Positions 7,094 through 40,550 of a stretch of 64,000 bases of DNA are shown one piece after another. Under the pieces are notes generated by a model. It saw nothing but the letters and a program-made list of their open reading frames with translations, had not been told where the DNA came from and did no database searches. Every line of letters begins with the position of its first letter. The stretch's first letter is position 1. The DNA is from an uncultured Chloroflexia bacterium (GTDB taxonomy: Bacteria; Chloroflexota; Limnocylindria; Limnocylindrales; CSP1-4): the NCBI GenBank assembly GCA_963809045.1, contig CAWEHW010000004.1, positions 331,816 through 395,815 of the forward strand. The letters run 5' to 3'. Position numbers and translations under genes: made by a program.

Positions 7094-7207
7094 TCCTCCA
7101 CCGGGTTGGTGCCCGGTCGGGACCGGGCACCAACACCGGTCCTTGCATTGAGTACGCTGCACCCAGGACGCGCGCCGTCGCGTGTCGGGAAGGAGTGTGG
7201 GCTGCCC

Positions 7208-9107: not shown

Positions 9108-9158
9108 CGCGCCCGCCGGTATGGGTCCTTCCCGGCGCTGGCTGGCTGCGAGGGCCGC

Positions 9159-9897
9159 ATGTCAGTCCTTGAGAAAGCAAGCGACCTGATCGACTGCCTG
9201 GGGCAGGCGGGCGGGCCGGTGACATTGGCGTATGTCAGGTCGGCCCTCGACATGCCGAAGTCGTCGACACACCGGATGCTGAGCGAGCTGGCCGTCCTGG
9301 GCATCGTGCGGCGAACCGAGGATGGCCGCTATTCGCTGGGCCCACGTTTGCTGTACTGGGGCGAGGCTGCGGCCGAGACGTTCAACCTCCGCTCAATTGC
9401 TGAGCCGGCCATGCGCCGGCTACGCGACGCGATCGGGGAGAGCGTTCACCTGTACATTCGCGAGAACGACGCCAGGATCTGCATCGCAGCCGTTGAGGCG
9501 CGACATGAGCTGCGCCCGTTCATTCAGCTCGGGCGCCCACTTCCACTCCGCGCCGGAGCCGCCGGCAAGGTGCTGCTGGCCTTCGCCGGCGAGGAGGTCC
9601 AGCGCCTGGAACTGCGACGCGCGAGGGCGGACAGCGAGCTGCCAAACGCTCCCGGAGCGCGGCTCGCGGGGGCAACTGGAGCAGATCCGTGCAGACCGAT
9701 GGGCGACCTCGGTCGGCGAGCGTGAGGATGGTGTCGCGGCCGTCGCAGCGCCGGTTCAGGACTCCCGGGCCCGGGTCGTGGCCGCCCTTTGTATCTCGGG
9801 TCCCACGACACGCCTGACCACCCAACGCCTCGGCGAGATGCTCGAGCCGCTCCAGGAATGCGCAGCGGAGATCAGCCGGTTGCTCCGCCGAGGTTGA
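9159..9897 (+). CDS. IclR-family transcriptional regulator with an apparent frameshift near 9670 at a G5 run
   Basis: HTH region PKSSTHRMLSELAVLGIV with the IclR effector domain. The C-terminus (GEREDGVAAVAAPVQDSRARVVAALCISGPTTRL) lies in a second frame that parallels the adjacent paralog. Confidence 0.75.
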
Positions 9898-21307: not shown

Positions 21308-22214
21308 ACGGGCCTATTCGCCGGCTGCCCGCGCGTCCGACGCGCCAGATCCGTCGCGTGTCCTGGTCATCGGCTGTGGTGCGCTCGCACGCGAGCTCGT
21401 CGCGGTCATCGACCAGGCAGGCCTGACCAACGTGGACCTGACCTGCCTTCCCGCGACGCTGCATAACCGCCCAGGCGGGATCCCCGCCGCCGTGCGGGCG
21501 AAGATCCGCGCCGCCCGGCCGCGCTACGAGAAGATCTTCATCGCCTACGCAGATTGCGGAACCGGCGGGCTGCTTGACGTCGCGCTCGCCGACGAAGGCG
21601 TGGAGCGCCTCCCGGGCGCCCACTGCTACGAGTTCTTCTCGGGCGCTCGCGACTTCGCCGCGATGACCGATGACGACCCGGCCACCTTCTTCCTGACCGA
21701 TTTCCTCGCCCGCAACTTCGATCGGCTGGTCATTGTCGGGCTCGGCCTCGACCGACATCCAGAGCTGCTGTCGACCTACTTCGGCAACTACCACCGCCTC
21801 GTCTACCTGGCCCAGACGGACGACCCGGCGCTCGTCGCGGCCGCCCGCCGTGCCGCGCGACGCCTCGGGCTGGCATTCGAGCTGCGCAGGACGGGGTATG
21901 GCGATCTTGCGACGTCCATCGCAGTCGCATCCGAAGCAGGGCGCGAGCGTCGTTCAACGGACATCGCGGCGCTTGCGGCAGGCGCACGAATCGTCGCCGG
22001 GACGTCACCGGGTGCCCCGAAAACGTTCAAATCCTTGCACCGAGTGAACCGTCAGGATCTCGCCCCCACCTTGACGGCCCAAGTCGTGCGGTCGACGCAA
22101 CGCCAGAATCGTGAGGAGCGGTCGAGGGGATCATCCGTGCGTCCGATGCACGGCCGACCGAGGAACGTGCAGCCCGTGCACGAAATTGACGCAACGGCGG
22201 CGGAGACCGCCTGA
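21297..22214 (+). CDS. Conserved uncharacterised protein, possibly DUF1638 family, associated with corrinoid methyltransferase clusters
   Basis: 305 aa, overlaps the corrinoid protein gene by 11 nt. The family assignment is from memory and not verified. Confidence 0.5.
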
Positions 22215-22552
22215 TGGGCACCCTGTCGATCATCTGGTGGCGCGACATCCCGGCCCAGGTCGTCGCCAAGGACGCCCGCCGATCCAGCAAGGTCGTCCTC
22301 CACCCCCGGTTCCAGGTCGCGATCGACAAGGCAGCGAACCGGGCGGGCAAACGCGCATACAACGACTACATCGGCGAATGGCGGAAGACCCAGGAGCGGT
22401 GCGACGACGATCTCGAGGCGGTGGCGCGAGCCGAGTCTGCTCGCCTCGAGGCCGAGTACACCAAGCACCGACTCGCCGAGCTGATCCAGTCGGGTGGCAT
22501 CGCGGGAGGTCCGGTTCTCCCGCCCGCAACGTCCGAGACGTCGCCGACATGA
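22214..22552 (+). CDS. Small hypothetical protein within the methyltransferase operon
   Basis: 112-aa ORF whose start overlaps the upstream stop (TGATG). Confidence 0.45.
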   Translation: MGTLSIIWWRDIPAQVVAKDARRSSKVVLHPRFQVAIDKAANRAGKRAYNDYIGEWRKTQERCDDDLEAVARAESARLEAEYTKHRLAELIQSGGIAGGPVLPPATSETSPT

Positions 22553-23454
22553 CCGACACCGTCCTCAGCTCCGCGACCCGCGAGGTGGTCATCGGGTTCG
22601 AGCGGCCGTTCGTGATCATCGGCGAGCGGATCAACCCGACCGGGCGCAAGGCCCTTGCCGAGGAGATGAAGAGCGGCGATTTCAGCCGCGTCGAGCGCGA
22701 CGTGCTCGCCCAGGTGGCCGCCGGCGCTCACATGCTGGACGTAAACGCCGGCATCCCGCTCAGCGATGAGCCGGCCATCCTCGCGAAGACGATCCAGCTG
22801 GTCCAGAGCCTGACGGACCTGCCGCTGTCGATCGACTCGTCGATCGTCGAAGCGCTCGAGGCCGGGCTCGCGGTCTACCAGGGCAAGCCGCTCGTCAACT
22901 CGGTCACCGGCGAAGAGGAGCGTCTCGAACGCGTCCTGCCGCTCGTCCGCAAGTACGGCGCGGCGGTCGTGGCCATCAGCAACGACGACACCGGGATCAG
23001 CGAGGACCCCGACGTCCGATTCGCGGTCGCGAAGCGGATCGTGGAACGCGCCTCCGACCACGGCATTCCGGCCTCGGACATCGTGGTCGACCCCTTGGTG
23101 ATGCCCATCGGCGCGCTGTCGAATGCCGGGCGCCAAGTGTTCTCGATCGTCCGGCGCCTTCGCGAAGAGCTCAAGGTCAACACGACCTGTGGCGCCTCCA
23201 ATGTCAGCTTCGGTCTGCCCCATCGAGAGGGGATCAATGCCGCCTTCCTGCCGATGGCGATTGCCAGCGGCATGACCTCGGCGATCACCAACCCGCTCAT
23301 GCCTGAGGTCAAGGCCTGCGTGATGGCAGCCGACGTGCTGATGGGCCACGATCCCGATTGCGGCCGGTGGATCCTCGCCCACCGAACCCCGACGCCCGAG
23401 GGCGAGGTCAGCCGGCGGCGGGTCAACCGCCGCTCCGTCGCGCCCGTCGGCTGA
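22548..23454 (+). CDS. Methyltetrahydrofolate:corrinoid methyltransferase (pterin-binding MtrH/AcsE-like)
   Basis: Pterin-binding TIM barrel with IIGERINPTG, LDVNAG, SIDSS, GKPLVNSV, DPLVMPIG and SNVSFGLP. Confidence 0.85.
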
Positions 23455-23464
23455 GGCGGGGTTC

Positions 23465-25646
23465 GTGCCTCCAGCGGCCGGCCAGGCGACCAACCCCGAC
23501 GACCACCTGGTCGTCTTCACGCCATCGGGCCGACGCGGCCGCACCAGGTCCGGGACGACCGTGCTCGATGCCGCTCGTTCGCTCGGCGTCGACATCGACG
23601 CGGTCTGCGCGTCCCGCGGGATCTGCGGTCGATGCCAGATCACGCAGGGACTCGGGACGTTCACCAAGCACGGGATCACCTCGGCCGAGGGGAACCTGGC
23701 GCCGGAAGGCTCCCTCGAAGCCACCTATCGGGCCGAATCGGGCATGGCGTCCGATCGCCGGTTGTCGTGCACCGCCGAGGTGCGGGGCGACGTCCTGATC
23801 GATGTGCCACCGGAGAGCCAGGTCCACCGCCAGGTCGTCCGCAAGGGCCTCGACGTCCGCGACTTCACGGTCGACCCGGTCGTTCGGCTGCACTACGTCG
23901 AGGTGACGCACGCCGGAGCTGGCGTCGCCCACCGGCGACCTCGGCCGGCTCTTCGACGCACTCGAACGCGAGTGGGGCCTGACCGGCCTCGCAGCCGACC
24001 TGTCGGTCATTCGAACGCTCCAGCCGGCCCTCGAAGCCGGCAGGTACGGGGTCACCGTGGCGGTCCATCGCGGCCGGCAGGTGATCGGCGTCTGGCCCGG
24101 ACTGCATGAACGGCCGTTGGGCGTGGCCATCGACATCGGCTCGACGACGATCGCCGGTCACCTGGTCGACCTGTCCGACGGGGCCGTACTCGCCAGCAAC
24201 GGCGTCATGAACCCGCAGATCCGGTTCGGCGAGGACCTCATGAGCCGCGTGTCGTACGCGATGATGCATCCCGAGGGTGCGGGCGAGATGACCACGGCAG
24301 TCCGCAAGGCGCTCGACGGGCTCATCGCGACGCTCGCGATGCGGGCCGGGATCAAGCGGGTCCAGATCCTGGAGCTCGCGATCGTCGGCAACCCGATCAT
24401 GCATCACCTGCTGCTGGGCATCGATCCCACGCCGCTCGGCGGAGCGCCGTTCGCGCTGGCCACGGATCAGGCCGTCGAGATCACGGCGACGGAGCTCGGC
24501 CTCATCGCCCATCCCGGGGCACGGGTGTACGTGCTGCCGTGCATCGCCGGCCACGTCGGGGCGGACACCGCGGGGGTGATCCTGTCCGAGGAGCCACATC
24601 GCGCCGACCGCCTGACCCTCGTGGTGGACGTCGGGACGAATGCGGAGATCGTGCTTGGCGACCGACGGCGGCTCCTCGCTGCCTCGAGCCCGACGGGTCC
24701 CGCCTTCGAGGGTGCCCAGATCAGCGGGGGCCAGCGCGCCGCGCCCGGCGCGATCGAACGGGTTCGAATCGACCGCGAAACGCTCGAGCCGCGGTTCAGG
24801 GTGATCGGCATCGACGCCTGGTCGGACGACCCGGCGTTTGCCGCGGCGCTCGGTGATGACTCGAAGGCCGGCGGCGACTCGAAGGCCGGCAGCGGGTCGA
24901 AGGCCGGCAGCGGGTCGAAGGCCGCCGAGGCCTCCGCGATCACCGGGATCACCGGCATCTGCGGGTCGGGGATCATCGAGGTCGTGGCGGAGCTCTTCCT
25001 CGCGGGCGTCGTCACCGCCGACGGCGTGATCGACGGGTCCCTCGCGGCTCGAACGCCCAGGATCGTGCCGGACGGCCGGACGTTCAGCTACGTCCTGCAC
25101 GATCCAGGCGAGACGGGAGGAACCGGGCCGCGGATCGCGATCACGCAGAACGACGTTCGCGCCATCCAGCTGGCCAAGGCTGCGCTCTACGCGGGCGTCC
25201 GGTTGCTGATGGACAAGCTCGAGGTCGAGGTGGTGGACGAGATCCGCCTGGCCGGGGCGTTCGGCAGCCAGATCGACCCGACGCACGCGATGATCCTGGG
25301 CCTCGTCCCCGATTGCGACCTGGCCAGCGTCCGCTCTGCCGGCAACGCGGCCGGGACGGGTGCCCTGATCGCCTTGCTGTCGGGCGCGGCGCGCACCGAG
25401 ATCGAGGGAGTGGTCCGTATGGTCGAGAAAGTCGAGACCGCCGTCGAGCCGCGCTTCCAGGAGCATTTCGTGGATGCCATGGCCTTCCCGCACAAGACCG
25501 CCACCTTCCCGAATCTGGGTCGCGTCGTCGCCTTGCCCGAACGACCGAGCGATGCGACGGGCACGACCGGCCGGGCTGCCGCCGAAGCCCGCACTGAACG
25601 TCGGCGGAGACGCGCCGTTGCCGCTGCCAGCAGGGAGAGCCGCTGA
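23465..25646 (+). CDS. Reductive activator of corrinoid enzymes (RACo; 2Fe-2S ferredoxin fused to an ASKHA ATPase) with an apparent frameshift near 23922
   Basis: N-terminal [2Fe-2S] motif CASRGICGRCQI and a C-terminal ASKHA fold (IDIGSTTIAGHLVD, DVGTNAEIV). The 24858-24923 stretch encodes a GDSKAG/SGSKAG tandem repeat. Confidence 0.8.
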
Positions 25647-27184
25647 TGGACGAGACCCCAAGGCACCGAACCGGCGGCCGCGCCGCCCGCCAGGCGGCTC
25701 GCCTCGCGGCGCATGCGGAACATGTCCCGTTCCTGACCCGCAAGCTGGCTCCGGTCGAGGTCCTCGACGAGGAGGGCCTCGCGCAGATCGAGCACAACGC
25801 CGACACGATCCTCCAGGAGGTCGGTCTCGAGTTCAGGGGCAACGCCGACGCCCTTCGGCTGTTCCGCGAGGCCGGGGCGGACGTCCAAGGTGAGCGGGTT
25901 CGATTCCCGCGCGGCATGTGCCGGCAGATCATCCAGGCGACCGCCCCGCGCCAGTTCACCCAGTTCGCGCGGAACGAGGCCCGCAACGTCGAGATCGGCG
26001 GGGCCCACACGGTCTTTGCGCCGAACTACGGCTCGCCCTTCGTTCGCGACCTCGACAACGGGCGCCGCTACGGCACGATCGAGGACTTCCGCAACTTCGT
26101 GAAGCTCGCCTATGCGTCGCCGTACATGCACCACTCGGGCGGAACGGTCTGCGAGCCGGTCGACGTGCCGGTCAACAAGCGGCACCTGGACATGGTCTAT
26201 TCGCACATCCGCTACAGCGACAAGCCATTCATGGGATCGGTCACGGCGCCGGAGCGCGCACGTGACACCGTCGAGATGGCCCGGATCACCTTCGGCGCCG
26301 AGTACCTCGAAACGCATCCCGTGGTCCTGAGCCTGATCAACGCCAACTCCCCGCTCGTCTGGGACGGAGTGATGCTCGGGGCGGCGCAGGCCTACGCGGA
26401 GGCCAACCAGGCCACGCTCCTGACGCCGTTCATCCTTGCCGGGGCGATGGCGCCGGTGACCGTGGCCGGGTCCGCCACGCAAACCCTCGCCGAGGCGCTC
26501 GGCGGCATGGCGTTCGTCCAGCTCGTGCGCCCCGGCGCGCCGGTCGTGCTCGGGTCCTTCGCGAGCTCGATGTCGATGCAATCGGGAGCGCCCACCTTCG
26601 GGACGCCGGAGCCGGCGCTCGTGCTCTACGTCATGGCCGCGTTGGCGCGGCGACTCGGCGTCCCGTTCCGTTCGGGCGGGTCGTTGTGCGCGTCCAAGAT
26701 CGCCGACGCCCAGGCGGCGTACGAGTCGGCGGCGACCCTCCAGCCGACCATCCTCGCCGGGGTCAACTTCGTGCTCCACGCGGCCGGCTGGCTCGAGGGC
26801 GGGCTCGCTGTCGGGTACGAGAAGTTCGTCCTCGACGCCGATCAGTGCGGGATGATGGCCGTGCTGATCAACGGCGTGGACATGACGGACAACGGCCAGG
26901 CGCTGGACGCGATCCTGGCGAATCCGCCGGGCCAGCACTACCTCGGCAACGCCCACACGCTGGCCAATTTCGAGAGCGCGTTCTACCGCTCGACCATCGC
27001 CGACAACAACAGCTATGAGCAGTGGCAGGAGGACGGCTCGCTCGACGCCAACCAGCGAGCCAACCGCATCTGGAAGAAGACGCTGGCGGACTACGAGGCG
27101 CCGCCGATCGATCCCGGGATCGACGAAGGGCTGCTCGAGTTCATCGCGAAGCGAAAGGCCTCGATGCCCGACTCCGAGGTGTAG
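25646..27184 (+). CDS. MttB-superfamily methyltransferase (non-pyrrolysine trimethylamine methyltransferase homolog; quaternary-amine:corrinoid methyltransferase)
   Basis: 512 aa with an MttB-family TIM barrel, no in-frame amber codon, and a 1-nt overlap with RACo (TGATG). Confidence 0.85.
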   Translation: MDETPRHRTGGRAARQAARLAAHAEHVPFLTRKLAPVEVLDEEGLAQIEHNADTILQEVGLEFRGNADALRLFREAGADVQGERVRFPRGMCRQIIQATAPRQFTQFARNEARNVEIGGAHTVFAPNYGSPFVRDLDNGRRYGTIEDFRNFVKLAYASPYMHHSGGTVCEPVDVPVNKRHLDMVYSHIRYSDKPFMGSVTAPERARDTVEMARITFGAEYLETHPVVLSLINANSPLVWDGVMLGAAQAYAEANQATLLTPFILAGAMAPVTVAGSATQTLAEALGGMAFVQLVRPGAPVVLGSFASSMSMQSGAPTFGTPEPALVLYVMAALARRLGVPFRSGGSLCASKIADAQAAYESAATLQPTILAGVNFVLHAAGWLEGGLAVGYEKFVLDADQCGMMAVLINGVDMTDNGQALDAILANPPGQHYLGNAHTLANFESAFYRSTIADNNSYEQWQEDGSLDANQRANRIWKKTLADYEAPPIDPGIDEGLLEFIAKRKASMPDSEV

Positions 27185-27186
27185 CC

Positions 27187-28089
27187 GTGCTCTTCCGGCG
27201 CCGACGCTCGCTCTCGGATGCACAGGCCGATGCACTTGCACGTGTCCTGCAGGCGCCGACGTTCGAGCTGATCCCGCTCAAGCACTCGATGGACCAGGCG
27301 GCGCTGCTGCCCGCCGGATCGACGGTGTCCGTCACCGCGTCTCCCGCGAAAGGGATCGAAGCCACGATTGCGCTGTGTGAGCAGCTGCAGGCGCACGGTT
27401 TCCGGGCCGTGCCGCACGTCTCGGCCCGGATGGTGCGCGACCGCGCCCACCTCGCCGACCTGATCGGCTGGCTCGAAGCCGCCGGGGTCGATCGCGCGTT
27501 CGTCGTGGGTGGCGATGCGAAGGAACCCGGCAGGTATCCGGACGGACTGTCCCTGTTGCGCGAGATGGCCGAGATCGGGCACCCGCTGAGCGAGATCGGG
27601 ATCCCCGGCTACCCGCAGGGGCACGCGTTCATCGCGGACGCACCGCTCCTGGAGGCGCTGCGCGCCAAGGCCGAGTTCGCGAGCTACATCACCACCCAGC
27701 TGTGCTTCGATCCTGCGGCCATCTCGAGCTGGATCAGCGCTCGTCGGGCGGAAGGGATCGCCCTGCCGGTTCATGTCGGGCTGCCCGGCGTCGCCGAGCC
27801 GCAGAAGCTCCTGACGATTGCCGCGCGGATCGGTGTCGCCGACACCCATCGGTTCCTGGTCAAGAACGTCCGGTTCGTCACCCGGCTGATCCGCTCGGGT
27901 GGCTTCTACCGGCCCGATGGCCTGCTCGAGGGCCTGGCGGTGCCGGCCGCCGATCCCTCGATGGGGATAAGCGGGCTCCACATCTACACGTTCAATGCCG
28001 TCGAGGCGACGGAGAATTGGCGACGGTCGACGCTGGCAGCTCTTGCGCGCCACGATCGAGATCGAGCCCTGGTGGCCACCCGGCAGTGA
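27187..28089 (+). CDS. metF: Methylenetetrahydrofolate reductase (MetF family)
   Basis: GTG start 3 nt after the mttB stop. MetF-family TIM barrel of about 300 aa. Confidence 0.75.
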   Translation: MLFRRRRSLSDAQADALARVLQAPTFELIPLKHSMDQAALLPAGSTVSVTASPAKGIEATIALCEQLQAHGFRAVPHVSARMVRDRAHLADLIGWLEAAGVDRAFVVGGDAKEPGRYPDGLSLLREMAEIGHPLSEIGIPGYPQGHAFIADAPLLEALRAKAEFASYITTQLCFDPAAISSWISARRAEGIALPVHVGLPGVAEPQKLLTIAARIGVADTHRFLVKNVRFVTRLIRSGGFYRPDGLLEGLAVPAADPSMGISGLHIYTFNAVEATENWRRSTLAALARHDRDRALVATRQ

Positions 28090-28264
28090 CCACGCGCGAT
28101 CTCGCAACGGGATCGGCGCCGGGCACGGCCGAGGGCACGTGGTCGGACATCCCGGTGACACCGGTCGTGCCGGTGGTTGCCGGCACGCCGTCCGCGATGG
28201 TGCGGGCCTGAGCCAGGCCGAGCTTCGATCCGCGGCAGTCCGAATTACACGGCCCGCTCCAGCG

Positions 28265-31596: not shown

Positions 31597-31627
31597 ACTC
31601 AATCCCGACGAAATCACTCGGGATTGA
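31597..31627. promoter_or_regulatory. Perfect 11-bp inverted repeat CTCAATCCCGA-N9-TCGGGATTGAG (stem-loop or operator) between the fur-family gene and the Rrf2 regulator gene
   Basis: Read directly from the sequence. It lies about 65 nt downstream of the fur-family stop and about 65 nt upstream of the Rrf2 coding region. Confidence 0.5.
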
Positions 31628-31691: not shown

Positions 31692-32174
31692 ATCGCCTTC
31701 AGCACGAAGGGCGAGTACGGCGTCCGTTTGATGGTCCAGCTTGGACGTCATTACGGCACCGGTCCGGCTTCGCTGGCGGAGATCGCGGCCGAGGAAGACC
31801 TGCCGCGTGCGTACCTGGAGCAGCTTGTCGTCAACCTGCGAGAGGCCGGCCTCGTCATCAGCACCCGTGGCGCCCACGGTGGCTACGAGCTGGGCCGGCA
31901 CCCGGCCGAGATCACGATGACCGAGGTCCTTCGGGCCCTCGAGGGACCCATTGCGCCGATGCTCTGCGCCAGCGATGACCCCGAGCACGCGACGGTGTGC
32001 GACCGCTCATCCCGGTGCACCGTCAACCTCCTCTGGGTTCGCGTGCGCGACGCCGTCGCCGGCGCCCTCGATTCGATGACCCTCGCGGACCTCGTGCCAC
32101 TCCGGGTCCCGGAGACCCAGATCCCGACAACGCTTCAGCCAAGATCCACCCACGGAGCCATGACCACCTCGTGA
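31692..32174 (+). CDS. Rrf2-family transcriptional regulator (IscR/SufR-like; three clustered Cys); start codon uncertain
   Basis: FSTKGEYGVRLMVQLGRHYG HTH with cysteine ligands CASDDPEHATVCDRSSRC. There is no in-frame ATG before the HTH, so the start is non-canonical or affected by a sequence error. Its stop overlaps the sufC GTG start. Confidence 0.7.
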   Translation: MAFSTKGEYGVRLMVQLGRHYGTGPASLAEIAAEEDLPRAYLEQLVVNLREAGLVISTRGAHGGYELGRHPAEITMTEVLRALEGPIAPMLCASDDPEHATVCDRSSRCTVNLLWVRVRDAVAGALDSMTLADLVPLRVPETQIPTTLQPRSTHGAMTTS

Positions 32175-33073
32175 CCAATCCATCCGCCACTTCCGATCAG
32201 CTCGTCATCCGCGGTCTCCGCGTCGCACCGCTCGCCCACCCCGAGAACGAGATCCTCCAGGGGATCGACCTGACCGTCGGCAAGGGCGAGGTCCACGCGA
32301 TCATGGGTCCCAACGGGTCGGGCAAGACCACCCTCGCCTACGCGCTGATGGGCCACCCTGCGTATGTCGTCACGGGAGGCGAGGTGTTCTGGCAGGGCCG
32401 GGACATCCTCAAGCTCTCGCCCGACAAGCGCGCCCGCCTCGGCCTCTTTCTCGCCTTCCAGTACCCGACCGCAATCCCCGGCCTGAGCGTTGCGAGCTTC
32501 ATCCGCTCGGCGTTGAACGCCAAGCTCCAGGGCATCGACAAGAACCCTGACGTCGACCCGACCGACCCGATGCGCGGCGGCATCTCCATGCGCGACTTCC
32601 GCAACAAGATGCGCGAGAAGATGGCCTTGCTGCGGATGGATGAAGGCTTCGCGTCGCGGTACGTCAACGAAGGGTTCTCGGGCGGCGAGAAGAAGCGGCT
32701 CGAGATGCTCCAGATGGCCGTCCTGGAGCCCGAGATGGCGATCCTCGACGAGACCGACTCGGGGCTCGACATCGACGCCTTGCGCATCGTCGCCGAGGGC
32801 GTCAACGCCATGCTCAACCCGAACCTCGGCGTCCTGCTGATCACCCACTACCAGCGCCTGCTCAACTACATCACGCCGGACGTCGTCCACGTCCTCGCCG
32901 AAGGTCGGATCGTCAAGTCCGGCGGCAAGGACCTGGCGATCCGCCTCGAGGACGAGGGCTACGGACCGATCCTTCGTGAGGCGGGCCTGGCGCCCGACCT
33001 GCCCGACGAAGCCTTGAAAGTTCCGCTCGCGCCAGCGGGCGCCGAGCTGGAGCCCGTGGAGGCCGCCCGCTAG
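32171..33073 (+). CDS. sufC: Fe-S cluster assembly ATPase SufC
   Basis: Walker A GPNGSGKTT, signature FSGGEKKR, Walker B ILDETDSGLD and the H-loop in LITHYQR. Confidence 0.85.
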   Translation: MTNPSATSDQLVIRGLRVAPLAHPENEILQGIDLTVGKGEVHAIMGPNGSGKTTLAYALMGHPAYVVTGGEVFWQGRDILKLSPDKRARLGLFLAFQYPTAIPGLSVASFIRSALNAKLQGIDKNPDVDPTDPMRGGISMRDFRNKMREKMALLRMDEGFASRYVNEGFSGGEKKRLEMLQMAVLEPEMAILDETDSGLDIDALRIVAEGVNAMLNPNLGVLLITHYQRLLNYITPDVVHVLAEGRIVKSGGKDLAIRLEDEGYGPILREAGLAPDLPDEALKVPLAPAGAELEPVEAAR

Positions 33074-33090
33074 CCGGGCTCGATGCTTCG

Positions 33091-34371
33091 ATGACGCTGA
33101 CATCCGAGCCCAAGGCCGAGCGAGCGGACGCTTCCGCCGCGTCCTTCGACCCGCACGTCGTCCGGCGCGACTTCCCGATCCTCGAGCAGGAGATCAACGG
33201 TCACCCGCTCGTCTACCTCGACTCGGCGTCGTCGTCGCAGAAGCCGCGCGTCGTGATCGATGCCGTCGCCGACTACTACCGGGAGTACAACGCCAACGTC
33301 CATCGCGGGATCTACACGATCGGCGAAAAGGCGACGGCGGAGTACGAGAAGGCGCGAGCCAGGGTGGCCGGCTTCATCAACGCGCCCGACAGCCACGAGG
33401 TGGTGTTCACCCGGAACGCGACCGAGGCGATCAACCTCGTCTCGTATTCCTGGGGCCGCCGGAACATCGACCGCGGCGACGCGATCGTCCTGACCGAGAT
33501 GGAGCACCACGCCAACCTGGTCCCGTGGCAGCTCCTCGTCCAGGAGAAGGACGGTGACCTCGAGTTCATCCCGATCACCGACGACGGGATCCTCCGCCTC
33601 GACGTCTTCGAGGTGCTGCTGCGCCTGAAGCCCAAGCTGGTCGCCTTCACCCACGTCTCGAACACCCTTGGCACGATCAACCCGGTCCGCGAGATGACCG
33701 AGATGGCGCACGCGGCAGGGGCGCTCGTGCTGATCGATGGCGCCCAGGCCGTTCCGCACGTGCCGGTCGACGTCCAGGCGCTCGGCTGCGACTTCTACGC
33801 GTTCAGCGGGCACAAGATGCTTGCGCCGATGGGCTCGGGCGCCTTGTGGGCGCGACGCGAGCTGCTCGAGGCGATGCCGCCATTCCTGGCCGGCGGGGAG
33901 ATGATCCGCGAGGTCCACCTCCGGCGCTCCGAGTTCAACGAGATCCCCTGGAAGTTCGAGGCGGGAACACCGGCCGTCGGTGATGCGATCGGACTGGGCG
34001 TAGCCGCGGAGTACCTTGGGGCACTCGGGATGTCCGCCGTTCGCGAGCATGAACGGGAGCTCGTGGCGTACGCCCTCGACATTCTTCAGGGCCAGGTCCC
34101 CGGGATCGAGCTCTATGGCCCGCTCGACCCGGACCTTCGCGGCGGCGTCGTCCCGTTCAACCTGCCGGGCATCCACCCGCACGATGTCGCCCAGGTCCTG
34201 GACCGCTTCGGGATCGCCGTCCGGGCCGGCCACCACTGCACCATGCCGCTCCACGAGCGCCTGGACCTGGCGGCAACGGCGAGGGCCAGCTTCAACGTCT
34301 ACTCGACGCGCGAAGACATCGACGCGCTGGCCGCCGGTCTCATCGAGGTCCAACGGGTCTTCAACGTCTAG
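33091..34371 (+). CDS. sufS: Cysteine desulfurase SufS (group II, PLP-dependent)
   Basis: PLP-lysine motif FSGHKM and the catalytic Cys in RAGHHCTMP. 426 aa. Confidence 0.9.
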   Translation: MTLTSEPKAERADASAASFDPHVVRRDFPILEQEINGHPLVYLDSASSSQKPRVVIDAVADYYREYNANVHRGIYTIGEKATAEYEKARARVAGFINAPDSHEVVFTRNATEAINLVSYSWGRRNIDRGDAIVLTEMEHHANLVPWQLLVQEKDGDLEFIPITDDGILRLDVFEVLLRLKPKLVAFTHVSNTLGTINPVREMTEMAHAAGALVLIDGAQAVPHVPVDVQALGCDFYAFSGHKMLAPMGSGALWARRELLEAMPPFLAGGEMIREVHLRRSEFNEIPWKFEAGTPAVGDAIGLGVAAEYLGALGMSAVREHERELVAYALDILQGQVPGIELYGPLDPDLRGGVVPFNLPGIHPHDVAQVLDRFGIAVRAGHHCTMPLHERLDLAATARASFNVYSTREDIDALAAGLIEVQRVFNV

Positions 34372-34535: not shown

Positions 34536-36101
34536 CTACACCCCGAACAGTCCGCCGAGGCCCTCGTCGATGGCCCGCTCGATCTCTTCCTCCCACCCAA
34601 CACCCAGGACCAGGACCTCGCTCACACCGCCGCAATCGAGCGACTCGTGCCCGGTGAACCGGAGCCGGACCGAATCGCCGAACGTCCCGGGCGGAAACGT
34701 CACGAGCACGTTGGGGTCGGGTGAGCCTTCAAGCGATTGGGACACGGAGTCCACGACGCTGCCACCGAACATGACGTCGACGTCGACCTGATCGAACCCG
34801 AAGCCGGTCCGGAACGCCTCCGTCGCGTTCTCCTCGTTGCCCCCGACCAGGATCGCTTCGATCTCGACGGGGCCGTCCACCGACCACGTGTACTCGGTCA
34901 CGGTCGACGTGGTGTGCGGCCCCTTCGAGAACCACGAGGTCGTCGTGTCGAGGTCAACCGCCAGCCGCGCCGGGAAGTTTGGGTCGACCGAGTTCGAGCT
35001 GATGGCGCCGATCGCCGTCAGGTCTGATGGGAAGAACGGCTCGCGCGCGACAGGTTCACCCGAACCTGGTCCCGGGAGCGTCGTCGCAGCAGGTTCGGTG
35101 GGTGCTGCTGAGACGGGCTCGGACGGTGCCGCGCTGGCGCTCGGTGGCGCGCTCGAGAGAATGGCCACGGCGTCGGTGCCGTCGGACCCGGGCGGCAGAC
35201 CGAACAGCTCGCCCGTCCCGAGATCGACGACTGGAATCTGCGCCAACGGGGCGGTCGCCGGCGCGATGACCTCGACCTTCTCGGGTGCAAACGCAGGCCA
35301 GGCCGAGCCGACATACGATGGCTGGACGGGTGCCGGGATTGGCTCGAGGAGCGGGTTGCCGCATCGGCATCGAGCTCGCGGGACGCCGCGGTCGTCAACC
35401 AGCACGGCGGTCCCGGCCTGAAGCACCGACTGACGAGCATCGGCAACGCCATCCCGGAAGCCGTGGTTGGTCACCCTGGTGTCCCGGTTCAGCGCAACCG
35501 GCGTCAGGCCACCGACGTAGTCGCGGATCGTCGACGGCGCGATGCCATGGACGGCGGCCCAGGCGGCGGCCTTGTCGGGGTTCTGATCGAGGAATGTGAT
35601 CAGCTGCTCCTTGTCGCACTCGGCGTTGTTCCTGGTACCGCCATACAGGCCGACCGTGCCGCCTGGGATCGTGCGGACGGCGATCACCGCGCTGGCCGCG
35701 GCGGATGGCGCATCCGTGACCCCTGCTGCGGACGAGGCGGTTGGTCCGACGCTTGTCGATGGCGACAGGTCAGCCGATGGCACCGGTGAGGCCGACGCCG
35801 TCGCGACCGACGGCGTGAACGGATCCGGGCCGGTCGCCGCCGCGGGTTCCAGGAAGATCTCGCCCGGTCCGGCGGCCGTGCTCGGTTCGGGCTCCCCCGA
35901 CGCCAGGCGCATGACGAGCAATGCGACCGTCAGGATCCCGCCGAGCGCGCTGACGAGTGCGAGCAGCCAGCTCGGCAGGGAACGGCGACCCTTGGGCCCG
36001 GGCGCTGGAGAGCTGATGGTCACGGGACCGGGCGGGACCGGGGTGGTTGTCGGCGTGACGGAGGGCGGTGGAGCCGAAGCCAGGGCGGGCGGCGCGGCCA
36101 A
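34536..36101 (-). CDS. Uncharacterised membrane protein with a Pro/Ala/Ser/Thr-rich extracytoplasmic region; the N-terminus may extend to 36315 through a Pro/Gly-rich repeat in another frame
   Basis: Transmembrane helix LLALVSALGGILTVALLVM followed by a long low-complexity linker and a C-terminal globular domain containing Cys. An upstream ORF ending at 36315 encodes GPPAGPPPGPPPSGPPPG and would be in frame after a single indel. Confidence 0.55.
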   Translation of the reverse strand: MAAPPALASAPPPSVTPTTTPVPPGPVTISSPAPGPKGRRSLPSWLLALVSALGGILTVALLVMRLASGEPEPSTAAGPGEIFLEPAAATGPDPFTPSVATASASPVPSADLSPSTSVGPTASSAAGVTDAPSAAASAVIAVRTIPGGTVGLYGGTRNNAECDKEQLITFLDQNPDKAAAWAAVHGIAPSTIRDYVGGLTPVALNRDTRVTNHGFRDGVADARQSVLQAGTAVLVDDRGVPRARCRCGNPLLEPIPAPVQPSYVGSAWPAFAPEKVEVIAPATAPLAQIPVVDLGTGELFGLPPGSDGTDAVAILSSAPPSASAAPSEPVSAAPTEPAATTLPGPGSGEPVAREPFFPSDLTAIGAISSNSVDPNFPARLAVDLDTTTSWFSKGPHTTSTVTEYTWSVDGPVEIEAILVGGNEENATEAFRTGFGFDQVDVDVMFGGSVVDSVSQSLEGSPDPNVLVTFPPGTFGDSVRLRFTGHESLDCGGVSEVLVLGVGWEEEIERAIDEGLGGLFGV

Positions 36102-36299
36102 GGGGCCGGGTGGTGGCCCGGCTGGCGGCCCGGCGGGCGGCCCGGCCGGTGGTCCGGATGGTGGGCGCCCCGGAGCCGGTGCAGGTGGTGACGCTGCCGG
36201 CGGCCCGGACGGGGGTGGACCCGGCGGGGGCCGGACGGGGGAGACCCGGCGGCGGGCCGGACGGTGGTGGTCCCGGCGGCGGTCCGGCTGGAGGCCCGC

Positions 36300-36971
36300 T
36301 CATGGCGTGGGGCACTGGGCTTGCCGATCGCCGTAGAAGCGTCGTCGTTCGCCGTAGTGGTCGAACGCCAGGATGTCATTGGCGGTCCGAGCCGCGTTCT
36401 GGATCTGTGCCGCCATCGCTGCCATCTCCCCGTAGATCTTGCTACAGCGCTCGCCGTCCGTGACCTGCCTGGCGTCCAGTTGCTGCCTCAGGCGGACTTC
36501 GACGAAGCTGAGCTCGTTATATCGCTGCCTGACTTCCCGATCCGACCCCGACACCGTCCTTCCCCTGATCGTGCGGTTCGGACTCAACTCCTGCGCGGCT
36601 TTCACATCCGCGTCGTACCGGCCAAGGCTTCCCCGGTCGAGCGCCAGGACCGCCCGGGACGTCCGGTACGTCCAGTCCGTGGGTCTGGACTCGATCGCCT
36701 TGTCCATCTTCGACATGTCGCCGCTCGTCCGCCCTTCGTTCATGAGCGCGTCCGCCTGGTTCACCTTGTCGATGGTCGCGAGGGCACCGACCGCCGCGGT
36801 CACCTCGTTGCCGTCGCCTATGCCAAACGTTCCGCCGATCGTGCTCCCCAGATTGTTGAACGCCCAGTCGGCCATGAAGTCACGCACGAACGCCTCGTCG
36901 CCTTCCTCGCAGCCGGCAACGAGAACGGCGATCAGAAGGAGCACACCGCCAAGCCCCGCACGCCGTCTCAT
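36300..36971 (-). CDS. Uncharacterised lipoprotein
   Basis: Signal peptide and lipobox (LLLIAVLVAGCEEG). 223 aa with no recognisable domain. 4-nt overlap with the upstream gene. Confidence 0.6.
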   Translation of the reverse strand: MRRRAGLGGVLLLIAVLVAGCEEGDEAFVRDFMADWAFNNLGSTIGGTFGIGDGNEVTAAVGALATIDKVNQADALMNEGRTSGDMSKMDKAIESRPTDWTYRTSRAVLALDRGSLGRYDADVKAAQELSPNRTIRGRTVSGSDREVRQRYNELSFVEVRLRQQLDARQVTDGERCSKIYGEMAAMAAQIQNAARTANDILAFDHYGERRRFYGDRQAQCPTP

Positions 36972-37570
36972 TGGCCGGTCATCCCGCCGAGGACCGCACC
37001 CAGGTCAACGCGCCCATCGAGCGATCGGCTGAACGTCTCGAGGTCGTCCTGGCCGCTGGCGACGCGGGTTATCGCGGACACGGATGCCGTGAGGACCCCC
37101 AGGCTCTGGCCCGTCCCATCGCGATAGTCGACTGCCACCCGGGTAATGCCCAGGTCCTGCGCCCGACCGTCGGCGAGGCGCACGAACATTTCGACCAGCC
37201 CGGGCCGATTCGCCGCGGTTGGGAAGGTGAAGCCGGCGGATGTGTCCAGCACGGCGTAGGCGATCACGGAGTCGCCCTCGCGCATCGGCAGGAGGTGGAG
37301 GCTCATCCCGGTCGTGTCGATCCCCGATGCCTCGATCGAGGCCATCAGCTCTCGGGCACCCTCGCGGTCCGGCGTGTCCGCGAGGAGGGTTTCCGCGGTT
37401 GGGAGGAGCCCGAGCTGTTGTGGGATACGCAGGATCAACGCCCCGCTGGCGATCACGATGCCGACCACGAAGAAGAGCGTCATCAGACAGCCGCGGAACA
37501 GGCAGCCTCGACCGCGCGCGGGCGACGCGGTCACGGCACGTCCGGCACGAGGAGGCGGCCGTCGACCCAA
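36968..37570 (-). CDS. Uncharacterised membrane-anchored protein
   Basis: Arg-rich N-terminus followed by the transmembrane helix LFFVVGIVIASGALILRI. 200 aa. Confidence 0.55.
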   Translation of the reverse strand: MGRRPPPRAGRAVTASPARGRGCLFRGCLMTLFFVVGIVIASGALILRIPQQLGLLPTAETLLADTPDREGARELMASIEASGIDTTGMSLHLLPMREGDSVIAYAVLDTSAGFTFPTAANRPGLVEMFVRLADGRAQDLGITRVAVDYRDGTGQSLGVLTASVSAITRVASGQDDLETFSRSLDGRVDLGAVLGGMTGQ

Positions 37571-38088
37571 GCCTCCCAGTCGTTCGAGAACGCGACGTGT
37601 GCCCAGCCGTCGGGCCGCTCCTCGATCAGCATGACGTCGAGACCGCCGGCCAGCGAATGCTCAGGCGGCAGCGCGCCGTCGGGTCGTGTCCAGGCAGCGA
37701 TGCCGGCTGCGGGTACACGATGGGTCGGCGTATAGCGCCGGGCCGTTGGCATCTGCGTCTGCGGCGTTGGCGCCTCCACGTGGGTCTCCATCGTGAACGG
37801 CAGGAGTTGCAGGGTCCCGACCGGAAGCCGCTGCGCCCACGCCGCACCGTCCCACAGCCACCATGTCGAGCCGTCGTAGCACCACGTCCAGCCAGCTTCG
37901 TCTCGCAGCGTGAGCTCACGAAGCGTCTCCGGCAGCTGGTCGGGCGGGTACTCGTCCTCGGCCAGCACCTCGCCGAGGCGCCGCGCCCGCGCCTCCCAGT
38001 CCGCGGGCGCGATGCCCGGACCGTCCCTTGGCACGAGCTGGAGCGTGACCGGTACCAGCGTCGGCATGTTCGACACGGTGTCGGTCAT
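37531..38088 (-). CDS. Uncharacterised Trp-rich small protein
   Basis: 185 aa with no transmembrane helix and a Trp-rich stretch (GWTWCYDGSTWWLWDGAAWAQ). Overlaps both neighbours. Confidence 0.5.
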   Translation of the reverse strand: MTDTVSNMPTLVPVTLQLVPRDGPGIAPADWEARARRLGEVLAEDEYPPDQLPETLRELTLRDEAGWTWCYDGSTWWLWDGAAWAQRLPVGTLQLLPFTMETHVEAPTPQTQMPTARRYTPTHRVPAAGIAAWTRPDGALPPEHSLAGGLDVMLIEERPDGWAHVAFSNDWEAWVDGRLLVPDVP

Positions 38089-40400
38089 GTCGTCCTCGCC
38101 CCGCCGGCAGCCACGGGTCCCGCCGGCGCCGCGGGGCCTGCCGGCGTGGGCGGGGCCGCCGCCGCTTGCTGCTGCTTGATGCAGTCGTCCAGGGCCTGGC
38201 GGAGCGTCGTGGCGCGGCCATGCTCCTTGTCCGCCTCGGCGGAGATCGCGGTGTAGCCCGTCCGCAAGAGCTCGATGTTCGCGAATCCCTTGCGGAGGAT
38301 CGTGACGATCTCCTCGGGTGACTGGCCGACCCCGAACACGAGCTCACCGAACACGCGGAAGGGCCAGCGCACGATCCGGCCGATCGCCCAGCCTTGTTCC
38401 GCGCCCTCCGGGATCCGCGGAACGGCGCCCACGTCGATCGATTCCGCGTTCCGCCGCAGGTTGTCGAGCGCATCCTGCGCCAGCATCTCGTCGAATTTGG
38501 CTCGTTCCAGGCGTCGCGCGAGATGGTCCGCGTCGGTGAACTCGTCCATCTTGGCCGCCGCCCGCGCCTCGAGCAGATCGCTGGCGGCCTTGTCCGCGGC
38601 GGCCTTGTACCGGAGGACATCGGCCTCCGTCACCTCTTCCAGTTGATCGAGCTGGGTCGCGGCGTCGCGAAGTTGGGCCGACGTGCGGTCTCGATCGGCG
38701 AGCAGCTCCTTCCAGCCGGGCTGGTCGTCCAGGTCCTTGAGCTGCTTGCGGGTCGCCTCGACCTTCTGCTTCGCCTCGCCGATCTCGCGCGCGTGCTCCA
38801 GCTCGGCCGAGGCGAGCCGCTCTGCCGCTTCGGCGCGCAACTCCTTGAGCCGTTCGATCTTGGCGAGCCGGTCCTTGCCCAGCGGCAATTTCTTGCCGCC
38901 GGGTCCCATCGTCGCCGAGTCGTCGATCTTCCTGATTGCGGCATCGAAGCCGGCCACTTCCTCCTTGAGCGGGGCAGCGGCCTTCGCCGCCCAGGCTTCG
39001 AGGCCTTCGACCCTGTCCTGGAGCTGGATGGCGGCACGTTGGAGCGGGGCCCGCACCTCGGCACCCTTGGCGATCAACCGGCCCTGCTTCTTGGCCAGCT
39101 CGTCCAGGTCGGCCCATTGCTTGCGGGCGGCCGTCGCCTTCGGCAGATCCGTCAGCGCCGCCTCGAGCTTGTTGAACCAGTAGGTCTGCAGGTCCCGCGC
39201 GTTCCGGACCGCGGTGCTGTTCTCGATCATCTCGTCGATCTTCGAGCTGAGCACCGCCACCTCGTCGGCAATGATCTTGACCCGGGTGCGGGCAACCTCG
39301 AGCGCCTCGTTGGCCAGCTGGAGCGCCTGGGCCATCTTCGGGCCGATCTTGGAAGGCGGCTTCCAGTTGTCAATCTGTTGCCGCGGCGCCGTGCCACGCG
39401 GTCGGCCCAGTGATTGCGCGAGATCGCCCACGGCGCCGCCGATCACCGAACCAACCTCGAAGCCGACGACCATGTTCGCCTTGATGATGTTGTTGGCGTG
39501 GATGATCTCGGCTCGATGCAGTTGCTCGGACAGGCTCTGCGTGGCATCGCGAAGGGTTCCGAGACGTTCGCGACTGTCCTCGTAACTCTGCTTCGCTCCT
39601 GAACACGCATCCGGCACCTGGCCGACGTTCGAGGACGGTCGCGGAGTCCCTGGCTTGCGGCGCCAGATGAGCCTCGCACCACCGATGACGATGATGACCC
39701 CGCCGGTGCCCACGATGATCGGGATCAACGGCGGGCCGCCGCCGACGCCGCCGGTGCCCGCCAACGGGACCTCTGGGATTGGGCAACCCGCGGCTCCCCG
39801 GTGGCGGTTGGCCAACACCCGGGCGACGATCTCGGCGTCATCGACGCCGTATCGCTTGGCCTCCTCGACACTGCCACGCTCGTTGGTGAGGACGACGATC
39901 GTCGCGAACACCTGCTGGTTGAGCAGGCGCCATTCCTTTTCCTGGAGGCCGAACTCGACACCCGGAAAGAACGACGAGAAAACGCCGTCCGATTGCGGGT
40001 TGTCTGGATTGCGCGCCAGCCTGCCTTCCTCGGTGATCAACATCCCGGGAGGCGCGCCCGATGGTGTGGTCACGTTGTCGCGATTGCCGAGCACGCTGGC
40101 GTAACGCTCGCTGGCGTCCTCCGGCGTGCAGTGATACTCGATGGTGATCGCCGTCCCAGACTGCCCGGAGGCCCGGTCGATTCGGTAGTTGCACAGGAAC
40201 TGCGGGCCGGGCGCCGTCGACGATGCCTCGGCGATGACGTTCCAGCCAGTCGGCTCGGTGACGTCGCAGATCGTCGCGGCGCTTGCCGACGGGGCCGCCG
40301 ATGCGAGCCAGAGGGCACTGAGAATCGCCAGACCCAGGAATCGGAGCGCGCTGAACCGGCGGTCCCGTGGCTGCGCGCTCGGACGGTCCCTGCGGATCAC
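38085..40400 (-). CDS. Large uncharacterised single-pass membrane protein: signal peptide, a roughly 200-aa Cys-containing extracytoplasmic domain, a transmembrane helix, and a roughly 500-aa cytoplasmic coiled-coil region
   Basis: Signal peptide LAILSALWLASAAPSASA, transmembrane helix PLIPIIVGTGGVIIVIGGARLIWRRK, then a long heptad-like charged region. No catalytic motif recognised. Confidence 0.6.
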   Translation of the reverse strand: MIRRDRPSAQPRDRRFSALRFLGLAILSALWLASAAPSASAATICDVTEPTGWNVIAEASSTAPGPQFLCNYRIDRASGQSGTAITIEYHCTPEDASERYASVLGNRDNVTTPSGAPPGMLITEEGRLARNPDNPQSDGVFSSFFPGVEFGLQEKEWRLLNQQVFATIVVLTNERGSVEEAKRYGVDDAEIVARVLANRHRGAAGCPIPEVPLAGTGGVGGGPPLIPIIVGTGGVIIVIGGARLIWRRKPGTPRPSSNVGQVPDACSGAKQSYEDSRERLGTLRDATQSLSEQLHRAEIIHANNIIKANMVVGFEVGSVIGGAVGDLAQSLGRPRGTAPRQQIDNWKPPSKIGPKMAQALQLANEALEVARTRVKIIADEVAVLSSKIDEMIENSTAVRNARDLQTYWFNKLEAALTDLPKATAARKQWADLDELAKKQGRLIAKGAEVRAPLQRAAIQLQDRVEGLEAWAAKAAAPLKEEVAGFDAAIRKIDDSATMGPGGKKLPLGKDRLAKIERLKELRAEAAERLASAELEHAREIGEAKQKVEATRKQLKDLDDQPGWKELLADRDRTSAQLRDAATQLDQLEEVTEADVLRYKAAADKAASDLLEARAAAKMDEFTDADHLARRLERAKFDEMLAQDALDNLRRNAESIDVGAVPRIPEGAEQGWAIGRIVRWPFRVFGELVFGVGQSPEEIVTILRKGFANIELLRTGYTAISAEADKEHGRATTLRQALDDCIKQQQAAAAPPTPAGPAAPAGPVAAGGARTT

Positions 40401-40550
40401 GTGACGGCCCCACCCTCAGATCGTTCACCCGCCGATCTGGGCGGGATCATCGCAGCGCGCGTGGGCTGTGTCCATGGCATTTTGCGCGGCCTCGGCGCAA
40501 TCCCGACCTCGCTGGTCGGGATTGGCGTCTCGCGGTACACTCGGGAATCG

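Follow-up and report, generated by a model that had tools for sequence, protein, structure and literature searches.

A translationally coupled operon of five envelope proteins lies between sufS and sufU

We focused on a block of five minus-strand genes, referred to as g1 to g5 here, at positions 34536-40400 of a 64,000-nucleotide (nt) stretch of contig CAWEHW010000004.1 from an uncultured Chloroflexia bacterium (the window; all window coordinates count from its first letter). All five open reading frames (ORFs) are present as a sequence-only reading of the window had described them, and their codon-position GC content (GC3 of 0.82-0.86, GC2 of ∼0.5), as expected of real genes at a genomic GC of 68%, supports them. 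The block opens with g1 (38085-40400; 771 amino acids [aa] from a GTG start), followed by g2 (37531-38088; a cytoplasmic protein of 185 aa), g3 (36968-37534; 188 aa), and g4 (36300-36971; a lipoprotein of 223 aa). It closes with g5, whose main ORF (34536-36101; 521 aa from TTG 36101) is preceded by the remnant of a Pro/Gly-rich cytoplasmic N-terminal tail (36102-36303). Each gene starts within the stop of the previous one, through ATGA at g1/g2, GTGA at g2/g3, ATGA at g3/g4, and ATGA at g4/g5, the last of these containing ATG 36303. The translational coupling that had been claimed for the block is thus borne out by 4-nt overlaps, with one change of gene model: the start of g3 is more likely GTG 37534, giving the 188 aa also called in a related locus (L014), than TTG 37570, the earliest possible start (36968-37570), which had been used before.

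A σ70-like promoter candidate (40446-40474, minus strand; TGGACA, a 17-nt spacer, and TG-GATGAT), identified by consensus match only, stands 46 nt upstream of the g1 start and is the sole such site in 6.5 kb on either strand, where shuffled sequences would lead one to expect 0.2. Given the 4-nt overlaps, the coding GC3, and this single upstream promoter-like site, g1 to g5 form a real operon of envelope proteins, with genes that share one orientation and are coupled in translation. The block resembles its flanks in GC content (0.66-0.73, with the maximum on a stretch rich in Pro codons, versus 0.65-0.69), and no integrase or transposase ORF is present in it, both as previously noted; an Rfam scan of the window gave 0 matches. 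Domain assignments also confirm the flanks, with Fur, Rrf2, a SufC-like ABC ATPase, and Aminotran_5 (SufS) on one side and NifU_N (SufU), ThiF plus rhodanese (MoeZ), ThiS (CysO), PALP (CysM), and JAB (Mec) on the other.

Hydropathy and AlphaFold2 (AF2) models agree with the topologies proposed earlier for the five proteins. Taken together, the architecture is membrane spanning: extracytoplasmic domains occur in four of the proteins, g1 adds a cytoplasmic helical region of ∼520 aa, and g2 is cytoplasmic. Scanning all five against Pfam, NCBIfam, PADLOC, and PHROGs recovered only DUF6777 in g5, the remaining matches being noise (JetC coiled coil, NPV_P10, and others), and sequence and profile searches of the PDB with g5, g2, the g1 ectodomain, g3, and g4 gave nothing except weak CBM32-like matches of the g5 C terminus. 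These profile searches, which had been suggested as a check, matched no characterized system; the accompanying statement that none of the proteins carries a recognizable motif does not hold, since g5 consists of DUF6777 and a domain of CBM32/discoidin fold and g2 probably ends in a bacterial SH3 domain.

The g5 protein carries DUF6777 and a CBM32-like domain outside the membrane

In the window, g5 has a transmembrane (TM) helix (aa 44-67, nt 35901-35972), a linker rich in Pro, Ser, Thr, and Ala, the DUF6777 domain (Pfam PF20568; aa 143-301, nt 35199-35675), a second linker, and a CBM32/discoidin-like β-sandwich (aa 355-500, nt 34602-35039). With a score of 200.3 bits against a gathering threshold of 27 bits (E = 2.3e-59; model positions 1-159 of 163), g5 is a member of the DUF6777 family. 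The residues invariant across 49 homologs include C162, N212, G214, and C245. The pattern YGG-x6-C, NHG (H), and Q had suggested a divergent NlpC/P60 peptidase; we rejected this candidate at the sensitivity of hhalign, since the DUF6777 profile gave a probability of 0.18% against three NlpC/P60 domains and left the triad unaligned, and g5 has no NLPC_P60 match in Pfam.

The C-terminal domain of g5 is a β-sandwich superposable on solved CBM32 modules. The window sequence itself has no PF00754 match at E ≤ 1, and a profile built from its homologs is weak (E = 0.009 to 3nng and 0.33 to 4lks); several homologs, among them P0099, P0118, and P0128 (labels of the form P0xxx denote homologous proteins, and L0xx the DNA of relatives and comparison loci), pass the Pfam threshold for F5_F8_type_C (PF00754).

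Earlier, g5 had been described as a Pro/Gly-rich membrane protein with a large extracytoplasmic domain. The topology holds, but the Pro/Gly-rich tail is 1 nt out of frame in the window: ATG 36303 and the 521-aa ORF lie in different frames. The ATG 36303 frame opens MSGPPAGPPPGPPPSGPPPG and then runs into nonhomologous sequence, while the PPG-type sequence carries on in the g5 frame, where TTG 36101 is the first start codon available. In L014, a short-read assembly whose proteins are 81-85% identical to those of the window, g5 is one unbroken ORF from the same ATGA overlap, with ∼100 aa of GPPP/SGPPP repeats leading into the TM helix. Since L014 has this intact ORF, the window tail shows an apparent 1-nt frameshift, which we would place at ∼36216-36240, where three C5 runs occur. 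Intact single ORFs with the same PPG tail are found in L006 and L007 as well. The cause is either a real mutation or, plausibly, an assembly error, as genes are also split in the long (megabase) contigs of siblings (g1 as 538 + 462 aa in L007 and g5 as 296 + 121 aa in L010); together with the C5 runs, these splits hint at homopolymer errors in this set of assemblies. A protein 100% identical to window g5 (P0072, from a 2.34-Mb NCBI/ENA contig) was called at 495 aa, that is, from the in-frame GTG 36023.

The g1 protein joins a cysteine-containing ectodomain to a long cytoplasmic helical region

A signal peptide (aa 1-41, with an ASA/A site) opens g1 and is followed by an α/β ectodomain with four invariant cysteines (aa 42-215, nt 39756-40277), a TM helix (aa 219-246, nt 39663-39746), and the cytoplasmic helical/coiled-coil region (aa 247-771, nt 38088-39662), in which helices reach residue 747 (AF2 model; predicted local distance difference test score [pLDDT], 71). 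An alignment of 14 members, with 33-86% identity, shows the invariant cytoplasmic motifs AExIHxNNxxKA and GxGQSPxEI. Two cytoplasmic cysteines, C266 (nt 39603-39605) and C740 (nt 38181-38183), are invariant in 14/14 aligned relatives, down to 33% identity. C266 lies where the first cytoplasmic helix starts, and C740 lies close to the end of the last one. If these helices pack antiparallel, the two residues would be neighbors and could possibly form a thiol switch or a metal site.

The g1 family is small: 5.8 billion clustered proteins gave 21 matches, and searching 1.84 billion representatives with a profile yielded 32 clusters at E < 1e-30 and 57 at E < 1e-10. Scanning metagenome contigs with the g1 profile recovered nothing, and scanning genome contigs recovered one metagenome-assembled genome only. 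No Pfam, NCBIfam, or PHROG model matches g1, PADLOC gives coiled-coil noise only, and fold searches with the whole model returned generic helical hairpins.

Several candidate identities for g1 were rejected. Membership of the SMC/MukB/JetC (Wadjet) proteins fails because the JetC2 match in PADLOC (E = 2.7e-4) covers only coiled-coil model positions 745-1066, and there is no SMC_N or AAA match and no JetA/B/D neighbor. No PspA_IM30 match was found at E ≤ 1, so g1 is not counted among the PspA/IM30/ESCRT-III proteins. The names that JGI gives to two relatives, “phage shock protein A” (P0018) and “Zn-ribbon protein” (P0016), do not apply either, since g1 has no PspA_IM30 or zinc-ribbon match.

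In distant relatives, the g1-type ectodomain is a mobile module (P0242, P0256, P0261, and P0307). The first three of these proteins carry a Peptidase_M23 domain. Some relatives of the ectodomain combine a TM helix, a Pro-rich linker, Peptidase_M23, and C-terminal zinc ribbons, and others have Ig/MG2/FecR domains and a C-terminal anchor; these partners hint at a cell-surface context.

The g2 protein ends in a probable cytoplasmic SH3 domain

The g2 protein comprises a Trp-rich N-terminal domain (aa 8-105, nt 37774-38067; W31, W69, W76, W79, and W84 invariant), which belongs to no family, and a probable SH3 domain (aa 116-183, nt 37540-37743) with the motif PTHRVP...GWAHV...W.AWVDGRLL. By itself, g2 has no Pfam match at E ≤ 1, and its best NCBIfam match is TIGR04211 SH3_and_anchor (E = 0.062). 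Eighteen proteins that are 44-58% identical to g2 over about residues 116-183 carry PF06347, and some of them also carry PF08239 and PF18348, so that by transitive homology only g2 may be assigned to the bacterial SH3 domains (SH3_3/SH3_4).

No hydrophobic segment or signal peptide is found in g2. Membrane-anchored paralogs in a distant cluster (L002) bear the same SH3 domain on polytopic anchors, at the positive-inside face according to hydropathy. Both the missing export signal and the placement in these paralogs indicate that the SH3 domain is cytoplasmic. A g2-like gene directly follows g1 in every locus examined.

The two genes that follow encode a protein with a single N-in, N-terminal TM helix and an extracytoplasmic domain of ∼150 aa (g3) and a lipoprotein with lipobox LVAGC and Cys21 (g4). 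Neither has a family match in Pfam, NCBIfam, PADLOC, or PHROGs (the best PHROG for g4, at an E value of 0.2, is of unknown function) or a match in the PDB. With tblastn, their homologs were found only in L006 and L007, and L014 has genes of the same sizes (188 aa and 223 aa) at their positions; we consider both to be lineage-specific accessory proteins.

A three-gene core recurs in other lineages

To separate conserved from incidental parts of the block, we compared gene contexts across relatives. The order g1-g2-g3-g4-g5, beside sufU-moeZ-cysO-cysM-mec, is kept in L006 (86%), L014 (81%), and L007 (77%), in the last of which it extends to sufS. At lower identity, L001 (65%) has g1-g2 and a convergent DUF6777 gene among unrelated enzymes, and the P0017 contig (35%) has the same layout beside an extracytoplasmic function (ECF) sigma factor. 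In L002-L004 (33%), the order is DUF6777, an SH3+4TM protein, g1, a protein with the g2 N-terminal domain, and an SH3 protein, with a further 2TM+SH3 protein upstream. The g1, g2, and DUF6777 genes are therefore adjacent in four arrangements, three of them away from suf.

These contexts suggest a core module of g1, g2, and the DUF6777 protein g5, with g3 and g4 as accessories and the five genes not forming one evolutionary unit. The earlier notion of a single envelope complex of five proteins is thus supported by the coupled operon but restricted by the fact that only g1, g2, and g5 travel together in other lineages. A secreted protein, P0278, joins a g1-type ectodomain (78-206) to a g5-type CBM32 domain (624-766; 32% identity, E = 2e-16), which may be read as a Rosetta-stone link between g1 and g5.

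DUF6777 ectodomains follow signaling domains in other proteins

In other proteins, the DUF6777(-CBM32) ectodomain occurs after N-terminal Pkinase, TIR, or Hsp70/MreB-like domains. Pkinase proteins with this ectodomain at their C terminus include P0121 and P0181, and TIR-DUF6777 fusions are P0116, P0130, and P0143. A position downstream of kinase, TIR, and Hsp70/MreB-like domains is the expected pattern of an extracytoplasmic sensor module. In Rhodococcus, a DUF6777 gene is convergent with pknD.

The g2-type SH3 domain gave two matches only in 7.3 Gb of plasmid and chromid sequence, each of them 3-4 kb away from a DUF6777 match, of which this sequence has only nine. Both loci are from Streptomyces (L012 282-6987, from the plasmid of sp. 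NBC_00184, and L013, from sp. N50). The cluster comprises an Rv1747-like ABC transporter/exporter with two FHA domains, an SH3 protein of 193 aa (49% identical over 63 aa to the g2 type), a soluble Ser/Thr kinase whose start overlaps the stop of the SH3 gene, a “streptophobe” protein, and a DUF6777 protein whose tail is PPG-rich, with a SpoIIE phosphatase encoded nearby. In sp. NBC_00184, the SH3 gene is OG778_RS33310 and the DUF6777 gene is OG778_RS33325. The FHA-ABC protein (783 aa), considered as an analog of g1, was rejected, since it is an Rv1747-like transporter with no similarity to g1. Our literature search found no paper mentioning DUF6777 or “streptophobe.”

Pro-rich cytoplasmic tails of the GPP type recur on DUF6777 proteins of the window lineage, Streptomyces, and Rhodococcus. 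A direct SH3-DUF6777 fusion was not seen among 336 proteins. Two DUF6777-CBM32 proteins, P0099 and P0103, have a two-TM start that resembles the N terminus of the 2TM+SH3 protein of L002 (7310-7780), without its SH3 domain.

The block may encode a trans-envelope sensing or scaffolding complex

We tentatively favor, while holding considerable doubt, the idea that the block encodes a kinase-less trans-envelope sensing or scaffolding complex without an enzymatic output domain. In such a complex, g5 would be a one-pass receptor whose extracellular DUF6777 and CBM32 domains sense or bind a glycan, most probably a polymer of the cell wall, and which normally presents a polyproline (PPG-repeat) tail inside. 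A second one-pass protein, g1, would contribute a disulfide-bonded ectodomain and, with its cytoplasmic coiled coil, a scaffold or transducer. The soluble g2, translated in tandem with g1, would act as the adaptor, its SH3 domain docking on the Pro-rich tails of g5 and possibly of g1 and its Trp-rich N-terminal domain binding the g1 coiled coil. The membrane-anchored g3 and the lipoprotein g4 would be accessory ectoproteins specific to the lineage. The output would then be protein-protein signaling or localization.

A number of observations weigh against this proposal. No output domain is identifiable in the five proteins. DUF6777 is far more common than g1 (at least 2,785 matches versus tens of clusters) and occurs without g1 and g2 in L009, where it stands alone, and in L010, so that g5 may act independently; conversely, L008 has g1-like and g2-like genes and no DUF6777 gene on the available stretch. 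The polyproline tail is frameshifted in the window itself, and the DUF6777 proteins of L002 and P0093 have no Pro-rich tail, so that recognition of such tails by SH3 would not be universal; in addition, most bacterial SH3 domains characterized so far bind peptidoglycan outside the cell. Fold searches did not assign a fold to DUF6777, and a profile of the g1 ectodomain found nothing in the PDB and left its fold unassigned.

A bolder form of the proposal strikes us as quite unlikely. It would make the trio a new class of transmembrane signaling system in which SH3 domains read the PPG tails of glycan-sensing receptors in the eukaryotic SH3/PxxP manner and signal to a coiled coil with a cysteine pair, DUF6777-CBM32 being a widespread actinobacterial module for kinase, TIR, Hsp70-like, or SH3-coiled-coil outputs.

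Possible alternative roles in morphogenesis and surveillance

An unlikely explanation, yet one with some weight, is that the block forms a structural or morphogenetic tether, with g1 serving, like EzrA, DivIVA, or Scy, as a cytoskeletal or division scaffold that is attached to the membrane, placed by wall-binding ectodomains and possibly controlling a peptidoglycan hydrolase. The length and helicity of the g1 cytoplasmic region would suit such a role, as would the Peptidase_M23 domains of P0242, P0256, and P0261 and the fusion of some DUF6777 proteins to MreB/Hsp70-like ATPases. The g1 coil is cytoplasmic, however, whereas those of RipA and EnvC are extracytoplasmic, the operon contains no hydrolase, and the strongest associations of DUF6777 are with signaling (kinase, TIR, and FHA/PP2C neighbors).

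We see only a small chance that the block serves surface surveillance against phages or competitors, with DUF6777-CBM32 detecting an attack and g1/g2 triggering the response. The TIR-DUF6777 fusions would fit this role, the cargo between sufU and sufS varies like that of a defense hot spot (L010 and L014; an Imm5_like gene), and g1 has weak PADLOC matches (JetC, E = 2.7e-4; PDC-M05B, E = 0.01). Yet the JetC match concerns the coiled coil only, an ATPase head is missing from g1, PADLOC has no match for g2-g5, and an effector domain (nuclease, NADase, pore former, or protease) is absent from the five proteins. There are no phage or mobile-element neighbors and no matches in PHROGs, IMG/VR, or GenBank phages, and four related contigs (the window, L006, L007, and L014) have kept the block at one site by vertical descent.

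The sufU-sufS interval behaves as a variable insertion site

In a sibling genome of 2.3 Mb (L010), the same sufU-sufS interval keeps a g5 ortholog (60-72% identity) and has an unrelated polytopic protein and a 991-aa repeat protein in place of g1-g4, along with an FMN-binding protein (FMN_bind_2), a guanylate cyclase, and a BBE oxidase. Since the L010 interval combines g5 with unrelated membrane proteins and other cargo, and the cargo, which includes an Imm5_like gene, varies in L010 and L014, the interval behaves as a variable insertion site. When tried as divergent forms of g1-g4, the 285-aa and 991-aa proteins of L010 showed no similarity to them. The latter (6550-9525), a membrane protein in the place of g1 with no Pfam match, contains a 26-aa repeat of the type H.DPVTGD.T.T..N.QG.P..T in ∼20 tandem copies.

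The window has exactly two copies of an operator-like palindrome, AATCCCGA-N9-TCGGGATT, one at 31599-31627, upstream of Rrf2-sufC-sufS, and one at 40499-40523, ending 31 nt before the ATG of sufU. In L006, L007, and L010 the palindrome is likewise present upstream of NifU_N, even though L010 has no g1, and a similar one lies near Rrf2 in L007 and L010; these sites are at 9878-9898 in L006, at 9842-9862 and 18819-18839 in L007, and at 5369-5389 and 18355-18375 in L010. As the palindrome stands at both Rrf2-sufCS and sufU, this suggests that one regulator, probably the Rrf2 protein, controls both halves of the split suf locus.

The genes for the SufC-like ABC ATPase and SufS directly follow the Rrf2 gene (31728-34371); we found no SufB or SufD gene either beside them or among the ORFs that were checked from 22 to 31 kb. 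The same Rrf2-SufC-like-SufS arrangement is seen in L010. Upstream, at 22111-28161, the window has a methyl-transfer cluster in which genes for a pterin-binding protein, a RACo-type activase, an MTTB-family methyltransferase, and an MTHFR-like protein precede those for an ABC ATPase and CbiM. L007 and L010 likewise have MTTB and RACo genes close to the locus.

The placement of the block inside an Fe-S/sulfur locus had been singled out as unusual. The position is real and kept in L006, L007, and L014, but other cargo fills the interval in L010 and the trio lies elsewhere in three lineages, so the block is neither fixed nor annotated between sufS and sufU throughout the lineage. A role as an accessory of the SUF/sulfur-carrier system, for example in envelope-directed Fe-S or sulfur trafficking or in redox sensing through the g1 cysteines, is very improbable. 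It would account for the conserved position, for the palindrome that the divergent g1/sufU intergenic region shares with the region upstream of Rrf2-sufCS, and for the two invariant cytoplasmic cysteines of g1. Against it, the trio is away from any suf gene in L001, L002-L004, and the P0017 contig; L010 exchanges g1-g4 for unrelated proteins and unrelated cargo; the palindrome stays with sufU in L010; and searches of Pfam and NCBIfam found no SUF domain and no Fe-S or persulfide-carrier motif or domain in the block. We conclude that the block came to lie between sufS and sufU by chance in the history of the genome, with no detectable functional link.

A prophage or mobile-element remnant with a tape-measure-like g1, as its long helical chain with Gly-rich hydrophobic segments and the tight packing of the operon might suggest, is scarcely credible, given that PHROGs has nothing for g1-g3 and g5 and only the above match for g4, that no relatives occur in IMG/VR or, by tblastn, in 50,697 GenBank phage genomes/records, that no integrase, terminase, or capsid gene lies nearby, that GC content and GC3 match the host, and that the signal peptide, ectodomain, and TM helix of g1 do not suit a tape-measure protein.

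Implications

If the proposed sensing or scaffolding complex is real, it would give DUF6777 its first working role, as an extracytoplasmic sensor or anchor that is usually paired with CBM32. Thousands of proteins from high-GC Gram-positive bacteria, Streptomyces and Rhodococcus among them, contain the domain, and the module could be connected to Ser/Thr kinases, TIR domains, Hsp70/actin-like ATPases, or a coiled coil with an SH3 adaptor. The complex would also offer a testable case of SH3-polyproline recognition inside bacteria that is tied to surface sensing, for which the Streptomyces cluster would be a cultivable proxy. If the proposal is wrong, what stands is a conserved module with clear limits and no known function, as is often met in uncultured lineages, and its interest would be modest. 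For annotation, the lesson is that a split suf locus need not mean a functional link, while sufU is probably still coregulated with the rest of the locus through the shared operator.

Comparison with known systems

No characterized system matched the core trio in Pfam, NCBIfam, PADLOC, PHROGs, the PDB, or fold searches; its parts and its architecture were compared with the nearest systems. The sequence identity noted above aligns the C-terminal domain of g2 with bacterial SH3 domains (SH3_3/SH3_4/SH3_16), while three features set it apart: it is cytoplasmic, whereas the well-studied SH3b domains lie outside the cell; its subtype, PTHRVP...W.AWVDGRLL, is distinct and tied to DUF6777 neighborhoods; and it is fused to the Trp-rich domain. 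Similarly, the C-terminal domain of g5 shares a motif of the A.DGD..TSWFS type with CBM32/discoidin (F5/8 type C) modules, and its homologs pass PF00754, but the module here belongs to a membrane receptor, not to a glycoside hydrolase, and the window sequence itself is below Pfam significance.

With EnvC-FtsEX, RipA/SteB, EzrA, and DivIVA, g1 shares a long membrane-attached helical hairpin, and its distant ectodomain relatives bring in M23. There is no sequence relationship with any of these, the structural matches are generic for helical hairpins, the g1 coil is cytoplasmic, and the operon lacks both a hydrolase and FtsEX.

The block would appear to work most like a one-pass receptor system, either a PknB-type kinase or a methyl-accepting chemotaxis protein (MCP) with CheW, while belonging to neither, since no kinase, MCPsignal, or HAMP domain was found. 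As in MCPs, g1 has an N-terminal signal/anchor, an ectodomain, a TM helix, and a long antiparallel cytoplasmic helical region, and a small SH3-fold adaptor is encoded beside it, as is the SH3-like CheW. However, g1 has no MCPsignal (PF00015) or HAMP match at E ≤ 1, no che genes are present, and its structural matches are generic (TM-score of 0.10-0.19 normalized to g1, identity of 6-14%); the likeness is topological only.

Actinobacterial one-pass receptor Ser/Thr kinases of the PknB-PASTA type, with extracellular sensors that bind the wall, differ from the block in their kinase domain, which all five window proteins lack, and in their sensor, which is PASTA instead of DUF6777 plus CBM32; the cytoplasmic partner here is a coiled-coil protein with an SH3 adaptor. 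The likeness lies in the bitopic plan, in which one TM helix links a ligand-binding module outside the cytoplasm to a cytoplasmic part, and it extends to the g5-type DUF6777(-CBM32) ectodomain itself, which is found on Pkinase proteins and beside the PknD and Ser/Thr kinase genes of Rhodococcus and Streptomyces.

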